Assembly (NCBI GenBank): GCA_008632985.1
Contig: QPGO01000243.1
Span: 1 to 64,000, forward strand
Reading direction: 5' to 3'
DNA length: 64,000 nucleotides
Source: Psammoneis japonica
Lineage: Eukaryota
Program-made: the position numbers and the translations under genes
Notes under the pieces: generated by a model
What the model was told of the DNA's origin: nothing
The model's database searches: none
Seen by the model: only the letters and a program-made list of their open reading frames with translations
In this document: positions 8,242-20,780 of the stretch, piece by piece
How the letters are laid out: every line of letters starts with the position of its first letter
Position numbering within the stretch: position 1 is the stretch's first letter

Positions 8242-8947
8242 CCAAGCAAATCAATTTGTGTCAAGCCGCCAATGCTGCTTCACTGCAAAACTGTCAATGT
8301 CCACACCTGGGAGCACATTTTCTTCACAAAGAACACCGCATTTGCAAATCATGCAATGTTGCTCAAACACAACAGGGTCTGACTCCTCATTGTCCCTGCC
8401 CCCTCTCTTTTTTTTTGCTGCTTCCTTTTTGTGCTTGCATGACCCCCACCCTTGAAGTTGTCATCAACTTGCACAGAAGGTGGCACCTTGTTCACTTCTC
8501 TGGCTCTGAAAAGAACAGCCCAACAAAACTTTTTTCACACCTGTTTCAGATCTCGACTTTCGATTTTTGTGGTCAGCAAGAAAAGCTGGGGATGAATTTG
8601 TGCTGCTCAAAATTGCTTGCACTCAAAGCCTGCTGTGTCTCAGAGAACAAGTGGCGCACTTGTGGTGTGCCTCTTTTTCAACTCCAAAACATGAGTTGTG
8701 CCCTCTTCTGCACAATGCCCAGGTTGTTTTTCATTGTGAGCACCACCGCTGAAAAGTGCACATTTGTGTTGCTTCTGTGGCGATGCCCTCCATGACTTTT
8801 TGGTGCTTGTTGTGTTGTCTTGAGGAGCTTCAGTGCAGCATGATGCCCTGCTTGTGCCTTGCCTGCCTTGATGCCATCACTGCCTTTTTGTCAGTGTCAG
8901 GCAACTCAGCATGGTTGCGCACTCCTGCTGTGTTCTTTTTCTTTCAA

Positions 8948-9175
8948 AGACCATCTGGGGGAAGTCTCCAGCCAGCTGCTGGCTGAAAAAAGTCTGCTCG
9001 TCAGTGCGTTTGGGGGTTTTGCAAGCACATTTTTTACGTGCACAGAAGAAGACGAGTCTGTCCAGCGTTCACCAAAACCCCCTGACGCACAGATTGACAG
9101 ACTCTTTCAGTGCAATTTCCACACAAAATTCTTCAGCCAGCAGCTGGCTGGAGTCTTCCCCCACATCCTTGGTCT
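8948..9175. repeat. Fold-back / MITE-like inverted repeat (~230 bp)
   Basis: GGGGGAAGTCTCCAGCCAGCTGCTGGCTGAA (~8957-8987) is the near-perfect reverse complement of TTCAGCCAGCAGCTGGCTGGAGTCTTCCCCC (~9132-9162); inner arms TGCGTTTGGGGGTTTT / AAAACCCCCTGACGCA. Confidence 0.7.
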
Positions 9176-9397
9176 GCTTTCTTCCAAAAAGGATTTCGAG
9201 AGCTTGTCAAGAGCCAACGATTTGGTGCTCTTCTTCACAAAAAAAGGATCTCTCCATCATCAGTGACTTTTTGGAAAAAGAAGTCGACCACATCGATGCA
9301 TCTGCCGGCATCTATCCGGTTCACACCCCGGCAGTCTGTCCCTCCCTCCCTCCCTGCATGCATGGGTGTGCATTTTGGATTTACGATCATCGTGTCA

Positions 9398-9962
9398 CTG
9401 TAGAGTGCGCGAAACGTCAGAATTGCGCGTTGGCGAAAACCACAACTTTTTTTCTCTCCTCCCACAGCCGCACATCCCGAGTTTTGCAATTGACGACGCT
9501 TTTGGCCTCAAACGGCGGCGAACAAGGCATCGGCAGAACCGCAATCATTGCAAGAACATGTGCATTGCTTTGTTTGTGAAAATCCGTAATGAGTTCGTCG
9601 AGAAAAGTGAATCTCGCAGTCGTTTTGCGTGCAATTTCGTGTTGGGTGTTCCCGAGAACGCGATTGCTTTTTCAATTTGGGCGTCATCCTCGTACGGAGA
9701 AACGCTGAATCACAGCTTTGTTGTAACACACATCTTGCCCACATGCTGGATCTTGGGATGCGTCTGTCTCGGCGTCACGACAAATCGTTTTATTGCTCAT
9801 TTTTTGGTCGCTGCTGTGTGTTGTGTTTGCTGGAGCTCATTGTTGTTGCTTCAAAGAGGATCCGCTCCGGGCCATCCAAGGCATGGAACGTCTCTTTGTT
9901 GTGTTTAAAAGAGATTCGTTGCTTTGAATTTTTCAAAACGGGGATCTCGGCGTCGTGAAATC
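9398..9962 (+). repeat. Left terminal inverted repeat (~565 bp)
   Basis: Reverse complement of 13951-14510 over its whole length, differing mainly by transitions. Confidence 0.93.
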
Positions 9963-10068
9963 GTTGTGTGTCGTCGGTGTTGTTGCCGCAGCATCCGTCT
10001 GTCATGGCTCCAACGGCATGTTTGCCTTTTCTCGTTCCTTGAGTGCAGGTTTTGCATCACGTGGCACC

Positions 10069-12282
10069 ATGAAGAAATCCATCTCTCAACGAACTTCATC
10101 TAGGAAGAGGCAACCAACAGCAGAAGCTAGGTTGGGTGAAGAGAACAGAAAGGACCAAGCTAGAGCCCACAAGAAACGCGGTGACAGCCGTGGAAGAAAG
10201 CACCGGTTGGATCTCCCGTTGTCACCAGACAGTGACGATGCGGGCGCATTGTTGAAAACACCAAGCATTTTCTCTAATGCCAATGGACAAAAATCGGGAA
10301 AGAAATCCTCCTCTTCTAGGTCGAGAAGCTCAAAGTCATCATCGTCATCCAAGAAGACACCCGGGTCGCGTTCAGATTCCGGCAATGCATCTGTTGATTT
10401 GGAAGAGAGAGAGCACACCATCTATGATCTGGATGCTTCACATGTCACAGTTAGGTTGTGCTTGCACGATGAACGAAAAACAAGCAGTCCCAAGTTCACC
10501 ACCCCGTTTAACTTTCGCGATGGACCCAACAGAGGGCAGGATTTGGTGTCGATTGCATCACTCGGCACTGGCTCCACCACAGAAGAAGTCGAGTCAGAAT
10601 TGGACGCACTCCTTTCTGCCGAAGGAAAGAAACTGATGCCGCACAAGACTTCAAACTCGAAGCCATGCTGCAGAACTGACCCCCAGATGGCGGATCCTCC
10701 AGGCAAGTGCGGTTCAAGCCGTGTGACGCCCACAGTTGCAGAGGCGCATTGGATGCATGCTCTGACTCATGTGTCGCACAAGAATTATGACGACGAAGGA
10801 GACATGGCTGATGATGAGAGTCAGTCTGACCCTTCTAGTGTCACTCTAGACCTGATCTGTGTTGTTGGGAACATTCAAGACGGAACAAGCACGGGGCAAG
10901 TGTCCAGGAAAAGAGGAACACAAGACGAAGAGCTGTCATTGGCCTTGCACCTTTTGCCTCCCGCAACGAACAAGGATGGAACGCATGTTGTTGCAGACAA
11001 GAAAGACGCGCAGCATGTTGCCACTCTAGAACCATCGGCTGATGGTGGCAGGGTTCAATGGAGTCTCGTGTGCAGCACTGTGTTGCGCGCGGCTGTCGAG
11101 GATCAACGGCACAAGGACAAAGATGGGAACTCGCACGTGGGAAAGAAGTCGTCATTGTTGCTCATGGAGGATTTTTCAAAAGCTCAAGTGAAGCTTCTCA
11201 ACTCTGCTGAGCATTTGTTTTCGGAAGCTCACAGGCGTGTCAAGGCAAAAAGCAAACCGCCTGAGGCACGGGATCCAAAATGCGCCTTCCTTCGTCTGTC
11301 TGTTGGAAAGAAGAAGAAAACCGATGAGCCGTGGGATGATGATGAGGAACCATCCATTCCCAGCTCCCAGGATGACAGAGTTGCAGCACTGCTCTCTCCC
11401 GAGAAAGCAGTGAAACCCCGCACTGCAAGAGAAACGCGAGAATTCGACGCAGAGGCTCCTGGAGAAGTCATCAAATTCATGAAAAAGTTGGTCAGCACCG
11501 ACATTGATTGCAACCCTTTTTATCATGCTCTCACACTGGAACACTGGAAAGCATGTAGACGGCATTGGAGCAACAGGACATCCATCGACGGCGAACGGCA
11601 GTTGCACATTTTTGAGGCGCATGAGCTGGACCCTGAAAAGCCAGATGCATGGCCGAACATTGATCTCGTGGCTCCAGAGGTTCATCCTTCTATGACCGAA
11701 GATGATGGCAGGTGTGGCGGATCAATCCAAAGAGGTGCGCATGAGGTGCAAGGAAACGGGTTGCCCAAATCATGCCGCGAGGATCCGGACATGGCAAATG
11801 AAGCGGGAAGGAACAAAGCAATGGAACGGATGGCGGAAGGCCAAGTCGATGCAGCTGCAGCTGTCCTGGCCCTGGCTAAAGCAAAAAGTGGACATTTTTT
11901 GGCTCCGGATGAAATGTTTGTCCATGTGATCAACACGGAATCAGAATGCACCGTGGGCATTTCGGTTCCATTCTCAGCAACCAAAACTGTTTGCACCGAG
12001 ATCTGCGACAACAGGAGACTGACAGATGCAAATGTTCGCAGTTGGTCAAAGGAAATTGTGAGGTCTGTTCGCAGCAAAGAAAAGGTGGTGCAGATTCACC
12101 TTTGGAACTCTTTGACCAACACAAGCGTCCTTTCATGGTTGGTGGAAGAGCTGGGGACACTTGCAATTGCGGAGTTGTTTCGCGCGGCGCCAAAAGATGA
12201 AAACAACAAACCAAAAGAACCAATCATTCTACACTTGGTGGTGGAAGATGTGGGTGCACTGTCCGATGCTTCTGCACTCTAG
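10069..12282 (+). CDS. Transposon-borne ORF of unknown function (~737 aa from ATG 10069)
   Basis: Open frame 9955-12282; basic/Ser-rich N-terminus with NLS-like SRKR, GRKHR and internal GKKKK; only 3 Tyr in 775 aa; no domain recognised. Confidence 0.75.
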   Translation: MKKSISQRTSSRKRQPTAEARLGEENRKDQARAHKKRGDSRGRKHRLDLPLSPDSDDAGALLKTPSIFSNANGQKSGKKSSSSRSRSSKSSSSSKKTPGSRSDSGNASVDLEEREHTIYDLDASHVTVRLCLHDERKTSSPKFTTPFNFRDGPNRGQDLVSIASLGTGSTTEEVESELDALLSAEGKKLMPHKTSNSKPCCRTDPQMADPPGKCGSSRVTPTVAEAHWMHALTHVSHKNYDDEGDMADDESQSDPSSVTLDLICVVGNIQDGTSTGQVSRKRGTQDEELSLALHLLPPATNKDGTHVVADKKDAQHVATLEPSADGGRVQWSLVCSTVLRAAVEDQRHKDKDGNSHVGKKSSLLLMEDFSKAQVKLLNSAEHLFSEAHRRVKAKSKPPEARDPKCAFLRLSVGKKKKTDEPWDDDEEPSIPSSQDDRVAALLSPEKAVKPRTARETREFDAEAPGEVIKFMKKLVSTDIDCNPFYHALTLEHWKACRRHWSNRTSIDGERQLHIFEAHELDPEKPDAWPNIDLVAPEVHPSMTEDDGRCGGSIQRGAHEVQGNGLPKSCREDPDMANEAGRNKAMERMAEGQVDAAAAVLALAKAKSGHFLAPDEMFVHVINTESECTVGISVPFSATKTVCTEICDNRRLTDANVRSWSKEIVRSVRSKEKVVQIHLWNSLTNTSVLSWLVEELGTLAIAELFRAAPKDENNKPKEPIILHLVVEDVGALSDASAL

Positions 12283-12318
12283 CAGATGAAGCGTAGATGG
12301 GGCATTTCAAAACTTTGG

Positions 12319-13857
12319 TCATGACTGTTTGCACACTGCAAACAGATTGGTCATCGACCAGACGGACCATCCGATGCCTCCGTGCTCTGCCAGCAGACAA
12401 ACCACACATGGTGGCATTTTAAAACTGCAGTCATGGCTGCTTGCACACGCTCTAGATGGATTGGCCAGACGGAGTGCAACTGTGTGTTTTAGTCTAGTCC
12501 AACACAACACAGCTGCTCGAATGGCTGTGTTGAATCCTCCAACACAGCTGAGGAAGAATTCTTCCTCAGCATCCCCCATCTTCCTTTCCTGATTGTCATT
12601 GCACCCTGGCACCCCACACTTGCGAAAACAGTTCCTGGCTTTTCGTGGCGTCATCTCTTCCAATGCCAGCTCGTGCGCCATTGACCAATTCATGCCTTCT
12701 TCATAAGAAAAACGCTTCAGGCCGGACTTGCAAACAGAGAAGCAGCACTCAATTGGATTCAAATCAGGGCTGCAAGCTGCTGCACAAACCAGCTTGGCTC
12801 CAGCATCTTCAATCAGTTGTCGAACGCAGTCGGAGATGTGTGTCGATGCGTTGTCCATCAGCACCACAGACCGCGGCTCGCAAAGATGACACCTCCCTAG
12901 AACCGGCACCAAATCATTCTCAACGTGTCTCTCAAACCTTTCCATGTCCACAGTCCCACGTTCCGGGTCATTGTCATGAGGGCCACATTCACGTTCTGCC
13001 AGCGTGCACGCTTCGATCACAAAACCGTTCATGTCTGCAGCACCAATCACAGTGCACCTCTTGCGAAAATCTTCCTCAAAATGTGCATCAACTGCGGGTG
13101 GTTTGCCAAATTTTCCCCAGCCACGCAAACGCCTGGATGCATTGGCACTCTTTGCCGTCTCATCAACAAAGACAGCCATCTCTGGTTTTTCTGCGAACAA
13201 CTCCAGCCGTTGAAAGCACCTCTCCCGCTCGGCCTTGCATCTTTGTCTTGAACGAAAAACCATTTTTTGAAGAGAGCAGCCCAGTCGGTGCAATTGACGC
13301 CATGTGGCAGAGGGGTGCCATGTTGTGCCCCGGCGTCGTCTCATTGAAAGCTGCATTTCATCGAGATGGAGATGCGGCTTCTCTCTCACGATGTCAAGCA
13401 GCACTTCATCACCCACCTCTGAAAATGATGCAGCTCTTGTTGTCACTCCGCGACGCCTTTTCCAGCTGTTCATTCTACGGCGAGCAGCAGCTTTTGTCTC
13501 ACCATGCTGAAGGCAGTGGTGAAACCAGTCATAAAATGTCTTGTGCTTGATCCTCCGGCCAAACATCTGATCAACTTCTTCCCAAACAGATTTGAGAAGA
13601 CGGATTTTCCCACCATCCTTCTGTGCATGCTGCCACGCATTGTCCCCCAGTTTTTCCATTGCAGTCTCAACACACTCCTTCTGCAGTTTCTTGTCGTCGT
13701 GCGCCATGCCACCATGCCGTCTAGGTGCATTCGGCCTGTTGCACGTGCAACGCCGAACTCCGGGAGCAACCCAAACCCCATGTGTCATGTCCCATCTTTG
13801 TGCCTCTCCAAAATTGTTACCCTCCCCCACAGCAAACAACTCAGCCACTGTTGCCAT
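12319..13857 (-). CDS. IS630/Tc1-like DD34E transposase (hypermutated, frame still open)
   Basis: HTH-like region (PHLHLDEMQ...WRQLHRLG), catalytic VFVDET, VVLMDNASTH, CSPDLNPIE with 34 residues between second D and E. Likely start MATVAELF at 13857. Confidence 0.92.
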   Translation of the reverse strand: MATVAELFAVGEGNNFGEAQRWDMTHGVWVAPGVRRCTCNRPNAPRRHGGMAHDDKKLQKECVETAMEKLGDNAWQHAQKDGGKIRLLKSVWEEVDQMFGRRIKHKTFYDWFHHCLQHGETKAAARRRMNSWKRRRGVTTRAASFSEVGDEVLLDIVREKPHLHLDEMQLSMRRRRGTTWHPSATWRQLHRLGCSLQKMVFRSRQRCKAERERCFQRLELFAEKPEMAVFVDETAKSANASRRLRGWGKFGKPPAVDAHFEEDFRKRCTVIGAADMNGFVIEACTLAERECGPHDNDPERGTVDMERFERHVENDLVPVLGRCHLCEPRSVVLMDNASTHISDCVRQLIEDAGAKLVCAAACSPDLNPIECCFSVCKSGLKRFSYEEGMNWSMAHELALEEMTPRKARNCFRKCGVPGCNDNQERKMGDAEEEFFLSCVGGFNTAIRAAVLCWTRLKHTVALRLANPSRACASSHDCSFKMPPCVVCLLAEHGGIGWSVWSMTNLFAVCKQS

Positions 13858-13950
13858 GAGACATGGAAAGGTCATGACCACAATCAACACTCGACAAAGC
13901 CTGCACTTCAAGCAACGAGAAAAAGGCAAACATGCCGTTAGATTGGCGAT

Positions 13951-14510
13951 GATTTCACGACGCCGAGATCCCCGTTTTGAAAAATTCAAAGCAACGAATC
14001 TCTTTTAAACACAATAAAGAGACGTTCCGTGCCTTGGATAGCCCGGAGCGGATCCTCTTTGAAGCAACAACAATGAGCTCTAGCAACACAACACACAGCA
14101 GCACCAAAAATGAGCAATAAAACGATTTGTCGTGACGCCGAGACAGACGCATCCCAAGATCCAGCATGTGGGCAAGATGCAATTACAATAAAGCTGCGAT
14201 TCAGCGTTTCTCCGTACAAGGATGACGCTAAATCGAAAAAGCAATCGCGTTCTCGGGAACACCCAACGCGAAATTGCACGCAAAACGACTACGAGATTCA
14301 CTTTTCTCGACGAATTCATTACGGATTTTCACAAACAAAGCAATGCACATGTTCTTACAATGATTGCGGTTCCACCGATGCCTTGTTCGCCGCCGTTTGA
14401 GGCCAAAAGCGTCGTCAATTGCAAAACTCGGGATGTGCGGCTGCGGGAGGAGAGAAAAAAAGTTGTGGTTTTCGCCAACGCGCAATTCTGACGTTTCGCG
14501 CATTCTACAG
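13951..14510 (-). repeat. Right terminal inverted repeat (~560 bp)
   Basis: Reverse complement of 9398-9962. Confidence 0.93.
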
Positions 14511-15269
14511 CACCAAAAGCACAACTTGAGCACGAGCATTCATTTCGCAAGTGCATGAAAGAGCTCGCATCGTACATGCATGAAAAAAAACGTGCCGTCT
14601 GTCATGGTCTGCATCCCGGAAGCATGTGGGATTTGAATTTTGGAACATTGCGATTGTTGTGAGCGATGTCACGAATTTTTTACTTTCCAAAACCTCAAAA
14701 CCACCATGACGACCAAAGAAAGCAGCCATGACAATCTGTGGCTCACCCAGATCAAGCAAGGCATCCACAACAAGGTCGGAAGAGACAGCGTGCGGGGCGA
14801 AGACATCTGGGGGGGAACTTGCAGAGGGAGTGCAGTGCGCACCATTGCGTGGGATGAAATGCTTGTGTTCACAATCACACATTGCTGCATGTGCAAATCA
14901 GGTCACAGTTGTGGATGTGTGCAAAAGGACAGATCAACCAGCACACAGATTTGGTTGGATGTCTCGAAAACTGCAAATGCGATCGACCGACGATGTCGAC
15001 ACATGAGGTGTCAGCGCTGATCACATCCGGACAATCTGCTGTCACAATCAGATGCTCCAAATGACCTTTGGTTTGCAAACATGGTGCAAATGCTTTGGAC
15101 CATTGAGAGCTCCTTCAGAGAAACTCCAAATGGCAGAACAAAGTCCAATCTCGCAATTTTTGTTTTTCGTGAGATTCGCTCTGTTTTGCCTGCACTTGTT
15201 CTTTGAGCACAGTGCATTGTGCACACACACCACAGAAAGCAAAGAGACAAAAGTGAAGCTTTTGTCTCA

Positions 15270-17870: not shown

Positions 17871-18399
17871 TGCCACATGGCAAGCCGTGTGCAGAAACCC
17901 TTGACCACAGGCAGACTCAGCACTTTTAAAAATTGGCTCACTTTTTTGCAGTCTGTGACATTGGCATGACGTGGCAAAACATTCACCACTGCAACAAAAA
18001 AACAGAAGGCATTTGCAGCTTCTGCGATGATGTTCAGAGTCGATTGGAGTGGGTTGGTGTGGTGCTTTTGCTGCTGCCAATGGTTCACAACCATGCTGTC
18101 AGTTGGCAAGTGCAAAACCTTCTTGTTTCACCTTCTTCTCCTCTTTTTTGACACGTGTGTTTTTTTCTGCCTTTTGTGTTTGATCAGTGGGCAAGAATCA
18201 CCAACAGCAAACATGATGACAGTGTGGGAAGTTGACTGTCAATCCACAATGGCATTGTGGCCTTGAGTCTCTCAGTGAGGGTGTGCCAAACATCTTCCAC
18301 CAAAAAGTGGAAACACATGCACATGCAGACAAATGCAAAAAAAAGAACTTCACTGCAACACTCAACACCTCCAAATTAAATTCAATTCAATCTTAAATT

Positions 18400-20780
18400 T
18401 TACACAGCCCTTGCCAACTGCTGCCCATGCTGAGCTTTTGACAATGCCTGACATGCCGTTCAATCCACAACTGTGGACAGGGTCAGAGCGTGTGTGCAAT
18501 GCAAAACAAGTGCAACAATTCTGCATTTGCAGTTGCAGGCGGAAACACTGCACAGCCGACAGTCCCCAAGAATTCTCCATCAGTCTAGCAAACCATCTTG
18601 CTGCATGGTGGTTGGAAGTGGGATGGCTGCAATGTTGCCCGAACTCTTCTTCGATGCAACCATCCAAGATGCCATGAGTTTGCAGTGAGTTCTCCACCAA
18701 ATTGTTGACACACATGCGGTGTCTCCACATGTCCCATGCTGCATTCCACAGCTGGGCTGTCAAGCCGGAGACCCATCGCAGTCCAGTGTTGCGGCAGTCC
18801 AAATGCTTGCAGTGTTGCTCTTGGGCATGCACCCACTCAATCACCAGGATTCCTTGAGCAAATGAACTTTCTCCCACTGTCTGTTGTGCAGTGAAGGCTG
18901 CTGCCATGTGGCTGCATTCTGTCCTGGGTGGCACCTGGGGAGCATTGTCATGCCATGATGTCAACATGCTTGCGATTCCCACTTTTGTGTGAGGATGAGC
19001 AAATTGCTTGGTGAGCCATTCTTTGACACTGTCAAGTTTTTTGGTTTGCAACTCCTGGGCCCCAAAGGATCTGCATCTCAGTGCATGATCTGTGCCCGTC
19101 TCAGGTTCTTGGCATCGTGGACACACCTGGCCCTCAATTTGCCCCAGCAGTGCAGATTTTTTAGATGGAACAAAGCCGGTGGACCACTTGGATTGCCACA
19201 AGCGGCAGAAGGCAGGGCATTGTTGCACGGCATTGCCCAGTGCAGTCCAGTTGATTTCTGCATGTGTGGGCTCAGACCGCAGTTTCTTGGCCCAATGTTT
19301 GGCAGCTGGTGGTCCGCACATGTGGTGAAGTGGTGTTGATTTGTCCCACTGTGTCATGGGCTTGCCTGACAAAGTGATGCACCACATCTCACATGCCACG
19401 TCAAAGTGAGCAAAGGATGGCAAACCAGCTCATGCTTCCCAGTGCACTTTTGCCAGGAGATCCATTTCAACATTAAAAACTTCCAGGTGACTCAGCTGAC
19501 TGAGGTCCACTTTGTGGTCTTGTTGACCCTCTTTGTGCCTGAACGATGACAATTGGAATGTCCTGGATCATCCTTCTGATGGGGTGCATCAGGTCACAAT
19601 TGGTCTGAGTTGGGTTGTTGCAGTTGTTGTAAAAACAGGTGCAAAGCACGAGATCACAATCACACCTGAGAATTGTTTGTCCACAAGTGACACTGTGTTT
19701 CAGGCACAGTTGGGAGAGTTTTCAGAGCATTCTGCACATTCCTTCCAACTCTCCTCTGCAAGCACTCTGATTGCTCTCTCTTCCCCAAGTGTGGCTCACT
19801 CCAGGGCATTGGTGTGAGTCGCCTTCTGATGGCACCAGAGTGTCATTGCTGCTGTTGCAGTTGTTCCTTTGAACGATCCGTTGGTGATGCTCATGGTCGT
19901 TCCTGACAAGATTCCTGTGACCAACAGTGCATCCTCAAGTTGTCATTTGTGTGGCAGGTGGGGCCATTCAGCTGGAGGGTTCCTTGTCTCAATGTCAACT
20001 GGGGCGCATCCTGCGGTGGCAATTTTTGGTCCATGTTGCATCACCTTGGTTGGCATGGAATCTGGGCGACAGTTGCTTTCATGACCATTGAAATGACAGA
20101 GTTGTGAGCAGACCTCTGTCTGCTCTTTTGTCTTCCTGTGGATCCTTTCATCCTCCTTTGAGCAACACCATGGTGATGGTGGGTGCTGCTGCCACACGCC
20201 CAGCTTCCTTCGCAGCAGCAAGTGTTGGTTCCAGCCGGGTGACAGACAGCACATGGTTGGTGCCTCTTGTCAAAGCCTTCAGCATGAGGCAGAGGGGCAC
20301 CCTGCGTCTGGCCACTCAAAGTCCGTGCCGCATGGCTGTTCCCCACTCCAATGTTGTGGCAATGTGCTTGTTCTGTCGCCACTTGAGATGTTGGAGACAA
20401 GTGCTGTGTTGAGCCACATCCTGCACAGATTGATCTTGCGCAATCTTTTGCCTTTGCATCTAAAGTCGACAAACATGTTCATCAAGAAAGTGTCGCTCAT
20501 TCTGTTTTGTTGCGGAGTGAGGTGGGCAATTGCAAATCAACATTGCATCCCCAGCAAAAACTCCACAGGGACTTAATCCATGTTTTTGTCACCAGGATGC
20601 CAAATTTGTTGCAGTCAACCATGAAGAGCTGTTTCTGTGAGCCGGCCTCCAAAGTTGTCATCTCTCAAACAAGAAGCATTTCCTTCTCTGTCATGGAGGC
20701 AGAGTCAATCTGTTGAAGGAAGGTTTCCAATTTCAAGATGCCTTGCAAGACATGTGGCTTGGTGATGCCTGGCAGTGTTC
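18400..20780 (-). mobile_element. Degenerate non-LTR retrotransposon, 3' half (RNase H and CCHC knuckle; resembles diatom Ambal-type LINEs)
   Basis: LRKINLCRMWL, RNase H-like ITNGSFK, CPRCQEPETGTDHALRC, LRWVSGLTAQLWNAAWDMWRHR. Confidence 0.8.

Follow-up and report, generated by a model that had tools for sequence, protein, structure and literature searches.

A probable two-gene IS630/Tc1 transposon with long terminal inverted repeats, marked by TpA hypermutation, in Psammoneis japonica

Transposons of the IS630/Tc1 type that carry several genes between long terminal inverted repeats (TIRs) have been treated as a ciliate peculiarity and linked to germline/soma biology (PMC7325037). A locus in Psammoneis japonica raises the question of whether a second gene, placed opposite the transposase gene, can belong to such an element outside that group. 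The locus lies in the first 64,000 nucleotides of contig QPGO01000243.1 (assembly GCA_008632985.1, forward strand), a stretch hereafter called the window. Positions 9398-14510 of the window hold a 5.1 kb transposon copy in which two convergent open reading frames (ORFs) stand between long TIRs, one encoding a transposase and the other, ORF1, a protein that belongs to no named family. We conclude that the locus is probably an inactivated copy of a several-copy, two-gene IS630/Tc1 (DD34E) cut-and-paste transposon, with ORF1 as its putative helper.

The boundaries of the element are defined by its TIRs. A repeat search identified collinear inverted arms at 9398-9678/14230-14510 (281 nt, 97% identity) and 9681-9726/14183-14228, followed inward by arms at 9731-9804/14106-14179 (100%) and 9827-9962/13951-14086 (97%). 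These are merged by blastn into one 565-nt match of 95.6% identity, which gives a left TIR of 565 nt (9398-9962, plus strand, terminus CTGTAGAG) and a right TIR of 560 nt (13951-14510, minus strand). In the whole window the terminal 32-mer has two occurrences, one at each end of the element, compared with 0.00 expected from 100 shuffles. Between the two TIRs there are 5 gap columns and 22 mismatch columns, and in 17 of the latter (15 events) TA or CG in one arm faces CA or TG in the other, so that the two arms could well have had the same sequence when the element inserted. Within the TIR, searches for internal inverted or direct repeats, palindromes and telomere repeats yielded none, and elsewhere in the window blastn detected no second copy of the TIR or of either gene and no solo TIR.

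The symmetry of the element continues inside the TIRs. A weaker mirrored stretch (10009-10054/13895-13942, 89.6% identity over 46-48 nt) is part of an inner TIR-like region on each side: on the left (9963-10068, plus strand) the arm contains about 38 extra nucleotides before the mirrored stretch begins, and on the right (13895-13950, minus strand) it mirrors the left arm. We presume these regions to be the 5' leaders of ORF1 and of the transposase gene, respectively. ORF1 occupies 10018-12282 on the plus strand (754 aa, stop codon TAG), or 737 aa if translation begins at the second ATG (10069), a start that is 107 nt inward of the TIR edge at 9962 and fits the N-termini of related proteins. 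The transposase ORF occupies 12319-13875 on the minus strand (518 aa, stop codon TGA) and has a second ATG at 13857, 94 nt inward of the TIR edge at 13951. A spacer of only 36 nt (12283-12318) separates the two convergent stop codons, and no third long ORF with relatives was found inside the element. In all these respects, from TIRs of about 560 bp and a plus-strand ORF of about 737 aa to start codons about 107 and 94 bp inside the left and right TIRs and stops about 36 bp apart, the layout agrees with that described in an initial annotation of the window, which had been made from the sequence alone.

The same annotation identified the minus-strand ORF as a DD34E transposase, and profile searches confirm this assignment. 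The Pfam family DDE_3 (PF13358) matches the protein with 57.5 bits (cut-off 28.6; E 1.8e-15), and an alignment of 17 sequences is invariant at each residue of the catalytic triad, D238, D341 and E376, in which 34 residues separate the second D from the E. Similarity to solved catalytic domains is weak (Mos1, E 5.7e-5; SB100X, E 6e-3). Models of N-terminal helix-turn-helix (HTH) domains score under their cut-offs on the window protein (HTH_33, 14.9 bits; HTH_32, 15.2 bits); on relatives, HTH_33 passes its cut-off of 25 with P0008 (29.3 bits) and reaches 24.2 bits with P0002. Database searches returned 59 relatives, the closest being 57% identical, from sources that include transcriptomes of the MMETSP collection and one diatom, with bacterial IS630 transposases as the weakest matches. 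Searches with the transposase alignment against viral contigs and against prokaryote genome contigs produced no matches. In a quick tree of 64 rows, comprising database relatives and bacterial-type IS630 sequences, the window transposase falls within a 16-row sub-clade (SH-aLRT 99) of a eukaryote-type clade of 46 (SH-aLRT 98), where the label 'bacterial' derives from a few source names and one protein, P0053, fell on the other side. The C-terminus of the window protein is about 40 residues longer than those of its relatives and runs to a TGA, probably as a read-through tail that arose when the original stop codon was lost.

Whether the plus-strand ORF is a gene at all is a fair question in this DNA. 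The element is strongly depleted of TpA (see below), and a change of TpA to CpA or TpG destroys TAA and TAG and cannot create stop codons; the stops that remain are therefore mostly TGA (195 in six frames, with 42 TAG and 28 TAA), the transposase frame runs on to a TGA, and spurious overlapping ORFs appear. Many such ORFs of 80-330 aa are present in other frames of the element, for example a 332-aa ORF at 12552-13550 on the plus strand, antisense to the transposase gene, and ORF1 might by the same token be a frame opened by loss of TAA and TAG. The protein itself argues otherwise. While a word-indexed protein search found no relatives of ORF1, an exhaustive HMMER search of 1.84 billion representative sequences found 27 at E up to 0.001, from other organisms and with normal tyrosine content, and folded domains are confidently predicted for ORF1 by AlphaFold. 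Four of the relatives, P0067 (743 aa), P0075 (751 aa), P0070 (805 aa) and P0079 (699 aa), have the same length and domain order and align along nearly the whole protein at 21-26% identity; fragmentary relatives reach 30-36%. The alignment has a common order of parts, namely a basic, Ser-rich N-terminal tail, two conserved modules, a helical region (~470-625) with FYHALTKEHW-like and DTWP-like motifs, and a C-terminal module. For practical purposes the artefact explanation is thus refuted, and ORF1 is, as judged from these alignments, a real conserved gene family and not a chance ORF.

In the sequence of ORF1, no Pfam family matches at E up to 0.1, and no enzymatic, DNA-binding, tyrosine recombinase, zinc-finger or kinase family was found. 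An AlphaFold model built with the alignment of HMMER relatives has a mean pLDDT of 71, with 236 residues at 90 or more, and contains confident domains at residues ~140-285, ~300-445 and ~630-745. A Foldseek search of this model against the Protein Data Bank (PDB) returned nothing at E up to 0.001 (best 0.022), and the weak matches were all to ubiquitin-like folds. In an independent fold search of 48,161 chains, beta-grasp folds filled all 50 top rows: residues 140-284 match the PB1 domain 2o2v_B (Z 7.7, rmsd 2.4, 81 aligned), residues 302-432 match the PB1 domain 4mjs_A (Z 5.9), residues 622-752 match ATG5, phosphoinositide 3-kinase (PI3K) adaptor-binding (ABD) and ubiquitin-like (UBL) domains (Z 6.5-7.1), and the tandem UBL domains of USP7 match across 305-750 (Z 6.4). 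On this model ORF1 likely consists of three beta-grasp (PB1/ubiquitin-like) domains, at about 137-285, 300-445 and 625-750 aa, a fold class that by itself gives no function. The ESM Atlas held no usable match for ORF1, and a search of metagenome contigs with P0070 gave 404 pattern matches, none of which was confirmed.

The C-terminal module of ORF1 (~630-752) is also found outside the transposon. It recurs 2-10 times in seven very large proteins (P0060, P0068, P0071, P0073, P0074, P0076 and P0085), five of which (P0060, P0071, P0073, P0074 and P0076) carry HNOBA and/or histidine-kinase domains, while P0068 and P0085 are without a Pfam family. The hybrid histidine kinase P0060 (3765 aa), for example, combines ten matched stretches of the module with HNOBA, HisKA, HATPase_c and three receiver domains. 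It seems, then, that the module is common to a transposon protein and to host signalling proteins and lies outside any named family.

Central to the two-gene reading is whether ORF1 and the transposase gene travel together. On positions 8900-15000 of the window, DNA run X1 yields 443 contigs, many of which represent an unrelated high-copy repeat in the left flank, with 169 contigs at 99% identity or more, 115 at 95-99%, 98 at 90-95% and 61 below 90%. Parts of ORF1 between 10055 and 12211, such as 10055-10689, 10864-11378 and 11869-12211, are matched by diverged contigs, and so is the transposase (13063-13441), which argues that the whole element is repeated and not the transposase alone. Neither of the observations that would count against the initial annotation was made: family members without the second ORF were not seen on contigs long enough to hold it, and the window contains no solo TIR. 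No X1 contig bridges both flanks across the element. A variant copy of the element, rearranged or deleted internally, is seen in contigs of both X1 and X2: the 3' end of ORF1, from 12139 on, is fused there to the transposase gene within its 5' part (13544-13828), and the two lie on opposite strands.

Relatives of both proteins also occur together in other marine-protist sequence data. In three cases an ORF1 relative and a transposase relative have the same source and contigs of identical size: P0082/P0001 (2235 nt, ENA), P0063/P0008 (7388 nt, ENA) and P0079/P0010 (3720 nt, Logan), where the size compared is that of the longest contig per protein cluster. When sizes were randomised by ±15% across 1353 pairs, the mean number of such matches was 0.10, and three were reached in 2 of 20,000 trials. 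The transposases of all three pairs lie within the 16-row clade of the window transposase, and the geometry of the 2235-nt contig fits a convergent layout, as it would contain the whole transposase and only the C-terminal end of the ORF1 relative.

Four loci emerged from a metagenome scan that used the transposase alignment as query, and two of these have no room for a second gene. In locus L004 (3412 nt) the transposase is followed, 75 nt on, by a convergent ORF of 703 aa, and in locus L002 (6085 nt), whose transposase is 98% identical to that of L004, the same second ORF is present in two pieces with about 405 extra nucleotides between them. The L002 element is about 4.4 kb long; inverted repeats of about 80 nt closely flank its two genes, and TA stands at each end. 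A frame of 703 codons at 36% G+C cannot be due to chance, so something keeps the second ORF of L004 open. The transposases of L002 and L004 are 36-37% identical to that of the window and belong to a different sub-clade of the tree, and their second ORF is either an accessory gene that has diverged beyond recognition or a sign that the slot is filled by different genes. Divergence would fit the trend seen in closer relatives, where ORF1 identity falls from ~30% to 21% as transposase identity falls from 54% to 45%. The AlphaFold model of the L004 second ORF (mean pLDDT 31.7) is unusable for a fold comparison with ORF1, and the ESM Atlas again held no usable match. The extra stretch of L002 (4134-4540), which is AT-rich, has no counterpart in L004 (~1924-1927) and splits the frame of the second ORF, may be an intron or an insertion.

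These data bear on the chief rival reading of ORF1, long-carried cargo: a host-derived gene captured between the TIRs long ago, without a role in transposition, in a slot that is filled differently in each lineage. In its favour, giant hybrid histidine kinases, P0060 among them, contain up to ten copies of the C-terminal beta-grasp domain of ORF1, which makes a host origin of at least that domain plausible. The second ORF of L002 and L004 is unrelated by sequence and evolves with dN/dS about 1, and Pfam detects no enzymatic or DNA-binding domain in ORF1. Set against this are the conservation of ORF1 over its full length in at least four lineages at 21-26% identity, and its apparent linkage to same-clade transposases in three independent contigs, which argues for long co-inheritance under selection of a kind that is rare for mere cargo. 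In addition, ORF1-family clusters are multi-copy in their sources and include truncated members (P0070 has 9 members). We therefore regard the passenger explanation as unlikely, and the finding that the second convergent gene belongs to the family, drawn from the 27 relatives, the X1 copies, the three pairs and the layout of L002 and L004, sustains that part of the two-component proposal made in the initial annotation. Its further proposals, co-expression of the two genes from TIR promoters and production of double-stranded RNA, are hypothetical. What it missed or gave too little weight is the heavy mutation of this copy at TpA: in DNA with a TA ratio of 0.15, open ORFs are no sign of an active element.

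This ratio points to the history of the copy after its insertion. The element contains 49 TA dinucleotides compared with 316 expected (observed/expected 0.15), together with an excess of TG (1.43) and CA (1.42) and a CG ratio of 0.84. The window as a whole is bimodal. Blocks of host genes have TA ratios of 0.5-0.66 and CG ratios of 0.9-1.1, while two islands, at 6-26 kb, which holds the element, and at 32-39 kb, have TA ratios of 0.02-0.31 and TG/CA ratios of 1.46-2.02. Parts of these islands, 16-26 kb and 32-38 kb, are also depleted of CG (0.12-0.41); there both TpA and CpG have seemingly been turned into TpG and CpA, while the element has lost TpA and kept most of its CpG.

The same process can be read in the proteins. 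Tyrosine makes up 0.39% of the window transposase compared with 3.3-5.0% in nine relatives, and cysteine 5.6% compared with 0.5-2.4%. Of 103 columns in which 13 relatives are at least 85% conserved, 15 are changed in the window protein; its closest relatives depart from the consensus in 1-7 of them, and the two most divergent rows, P0012 and P0013, in 12 and 21. In eight of the 15 changes Tyr is replaced by His (TAY to CAY) or by Cys (TAY to TGY); the rest include replacements of Ile by Met or Thr and of Val by Ala. The PYSPDLNPIE motif beside the catalytic E reads ACSPDLNPIE. ORF1 has likewise 0.4% tyrosine compared with 1.1-4.2% in its relatives, and of six columns in which Tyr is present in half or more of the relatives, the window protein keeps it in one and has His in three, Cys in one and Thr in one. 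Differences between the window copy and X1 contigs fit the same process: the 40 best supported include 37 transitions, among them seven paired CA/TG swaps at a single dinucleotide, the pattern that separate mutation of one ancestral TA (or CG) in different copies would leave, and all listed differences comprise 368 transitions and 102 transversions.

Could the window copy nevertheless be an intact, currently active two-component element? Both of its ORFs are uninterrupted, its TIRs are 95.6% identical, and the 43 invariant columns of a 14-row alignment, DDE included, are kept, although this last point holds by construction. An active copy is nonetheless very improbable. The 15 changed columns include the motif next to the catalytic glutamate, tyrosine has been almost eliminated from both proteins, the transposase carries a read-through tail of ~40 aa, and the element lies within a 20-kb island with a TA ratio of 0.02-0.14. 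Since the change of TpA to CpA or TpG creates no stops, the two open frames carry no weight as evidence that the copy works. Hypermutation has removed nearly every conserved Tyr codon, and the window copy is therefore most likely dead.

A mutational process with this signature has been described in Bigelowiella natans. In mutation-accumulation lines of that species, integrated DNA of giant viruses and virophages was reported to mutate at no site other than TpA; its genome is said to contain 124 TpA-depleted clusters enriched in CpA and TpG, and TpA-depleted coding sequences are enriched in 'DDE superfamily endonuclease' (10.64898/2026.01.13.699255). The authors of this preprint suggest that an A-deaminase is responsible and that RNA may guide it (10.64898/2026.01.13.699255). 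In the element and its island we find the same depletion of TpA and enrichment of CpA and TpG, clustered over at least 3 kb, and the same direction of change, from T/A to C/G at TpA. They differ in kind from the regions treated there, which are of giant-virus and virophage origin and not a transposon such as that of the window; the words 'transposase', 'Tc1' and 'mariner' occur 0 times in the preprint's text. In addition, the B. natans process acts on TpA only, whereas parts of the window island (16-26 kb and 32-38 kb) are depleted of CpG as well.

Taken together, these findings suggest the following life history for the element. In an intact copy the transposase would bind the TIR ends, excise the element and reinsert it, probably at TA, as the TA at both ends of the L002 element suggests. 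Each gene might be read inward from the mirrored ~650 nt upstream of its ATG, supplied by the TIR, so that the two would be expressed together in the manner of MuDR. ORF1 could then act as a non-catalytic accessory or adaptor protein that aids the transposase through oligomerisation, nuclear targeting or recruitment of host factors. This helper role, suggested by comparison with the second proteins of MuDR and Harbinger, is a tentative possibility when taken alone. After insertion, host hypermutation of TpA to CpA or TpG, with some decay of CpG, would have removed about 85% of TpA and nearly all conserved Tyr codons.

Several observations weigh against the view that the locus is such a two-gene transposon. 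The dinucleotides that flank the element are both CA (9396-9397 and 14511-14512) and not TA, so a TA target site is not seen at the window copy; CA/CA flanks could be a TA duplication mutated by the TpA process, which yields CA and TG in the island, with a chance alternative of 1 in 16. The NCBIfam IS630 model NF033545, aligned over positions 24-277 of 299, gives the window transposase 91.5 bits against a cut-off of 100, a score lowered because the copy is hypermutated; relatives score above the cut-off (P0001, 111.5; P0002, 122.5) or below it (P0010, 98.8; L004, 83.2). Every fold match of ORF1 has a Z below 8, a range which may mean only a common arrangement. The copy number of the element is not readable from the X1 contigs, and the three pairings were made indirectly, on equal contig size and source. 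The second ORF of L002 and L004 has no detectable relationship to the ORF1 family by hmmsearch, phmmer or hhalign (probability 3.6% in the last), and between L002 and L004 its dN/dS is 0.95 (469 codons) and 1.55 (213 codons), compared with 0.12 for the transposase; the slot opposite the transposase may hold unrelated or weakly constrained genes. Finally, promoters in the TIRs and co-expression of ORF1 with the transposase are things that we infer from the symmetry of the element.

If a two-gene lineage of this kind exists in other marine protists, accessory genes of IS630/Tc1 elements would be older and more widespread than the ciliate-only view allows, and ORF1, with its ubiquitin/PB1-like modules and its place in no named family, would extend the known kinds of transposon accessory protein. 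The window copy is also a clean natural record of TpA-specific hypermutation on a transposon, readable in protein as the loss of Tyr, and a caution that in genomes with a TpA mutation spectrum long open reading frames are no evidence of intact genes. A bolder version of this reading, improbable as a whole, would make the element the first non-ciliate multi-gene IS630/Tc1 lineage, widespread in marine protists, with a PB1/ubiquitin-like accessory protein required for transposition; stops only 36 nt apart would lead to antisense overlap and to double-stranded RNA (dsRNA) that draws host TpA-specific (ADAR-like, RNA-guided) DNA editing onto the element. If true, the editing of the element, which would rank with the most strongly edited sequences of the genome, would be explained by its own architecture.

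The surroundings of the element contain further features. Other long ORFs of the window are eukaryotic genes, for example those for eIF2A, CorA, Myb and PhoX. To the left of the transposon, a palindromic repeat occupies 8953-9166, with arms at 8953-8990/9129-9166 (92%) and 8987-9021/9073-9107. Summed contig depth over it in X1 reaches ~9380 and 3545 in two bins, where the neighbouring sequence has ~70-200, and contigs end at its borders; the repeat is probably an element of very high copy number that resembles a miniature inverted-repeat transposable element (MITE). To the right, at 18362-19429 on the minus strand, a 355-aa stop-to-stop frame without a Pfam family has no Tyr, 5.9% Cys, 5.9% His and a TA ratio of 0.08, and is either one more relic gene decayed by hypermutation or a frame that remains open because TAA and TAG stops were lost.

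How does the element compare with known systems? The layout of two genes with a facing second protein is so far described mainly in ciliates, and the hypermutation context is already present in the preprint discussed above. Our literature search found no two-gene IS630/Tc1 element outside ciliates, and as Repbase and most subscription journals lay outside its scope, a prior entry is possible. Ciliate elements of the IS630/Tc1 type with several ORFs are described as including Tec1 and Tec2 of Euplotes, TBE of Oxytricha and Sardine, Thon and Anchois of Paramecium (PMC7325037, PMC3464196, PMC4724952). According to the same reports, Tec has TIRs of ~700 bp, three ORFs and a DD34E transposase, TBE has TIRs of ~80 bp and three ORFs, Sardine is 6.7 kb long with palindromic TIRs of 425 bp and up to four ORFs, and Thon has TIRs of ~700 bp; accessory ORFs, such as the 57-kD ORF of TBE, evolve faster than the transposase (PMC7325037, PMC3464196, PMC4724952).

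Like the window element, the ciliate elements combine an IS630-Tc1-type transposase (DD34E/DD35E in their case) with further ORFs, a likeness of general design. They have three or four genes where the window element has two. Tec, Sardine and Thon carry a tyrosine recombinase ORF beside the DDE transposase, whereas the window element is without one and its second protein is predicted to be built of beta-grasp domains. The TIRs of Sardine are palindromic, while those of the window are not internally palindromic and lack telomere repeats. The hosts differ as well, since the window host is not read with a ciliate code and the relatives of its element come from MMETSP/diatom-type sources.

The maize element MuDR is reported to have two convergent genes, for a transposase and for a protein of unknown function, with promoters and start sites in TIRs of ~215 bp, and its antisense RNA is attributed to transcription that fails to terminate between the genes (PMC3440606). 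The window element has nothing but the convergent layout in common with MuDR: MuDR has a MURA/MULE transposase and a 9-bp target duplication, whereas the window element has a DDE_3/IS630 transposase without a MULE match and at most 2 bp duplicated. Typical Tc1 elements, at the other end of the range, are given as ~1.3 kb long with TIRs of ~30 bp and one ORF, although in some, Minos for example, the TIRs reach several hundred bp (PMC7325037). The window element shares with canonical elements of the Tc1, Minos and Sleeping Beauty type the DD34E triad and the design of a TIR-bounded cut-and-paste transposon. It differs from their single-ORF form in its length of 5.1 kb, in its second gene of 2.2 kb, and in a transposase that fits the bacterial IS630 model nearly end to end.

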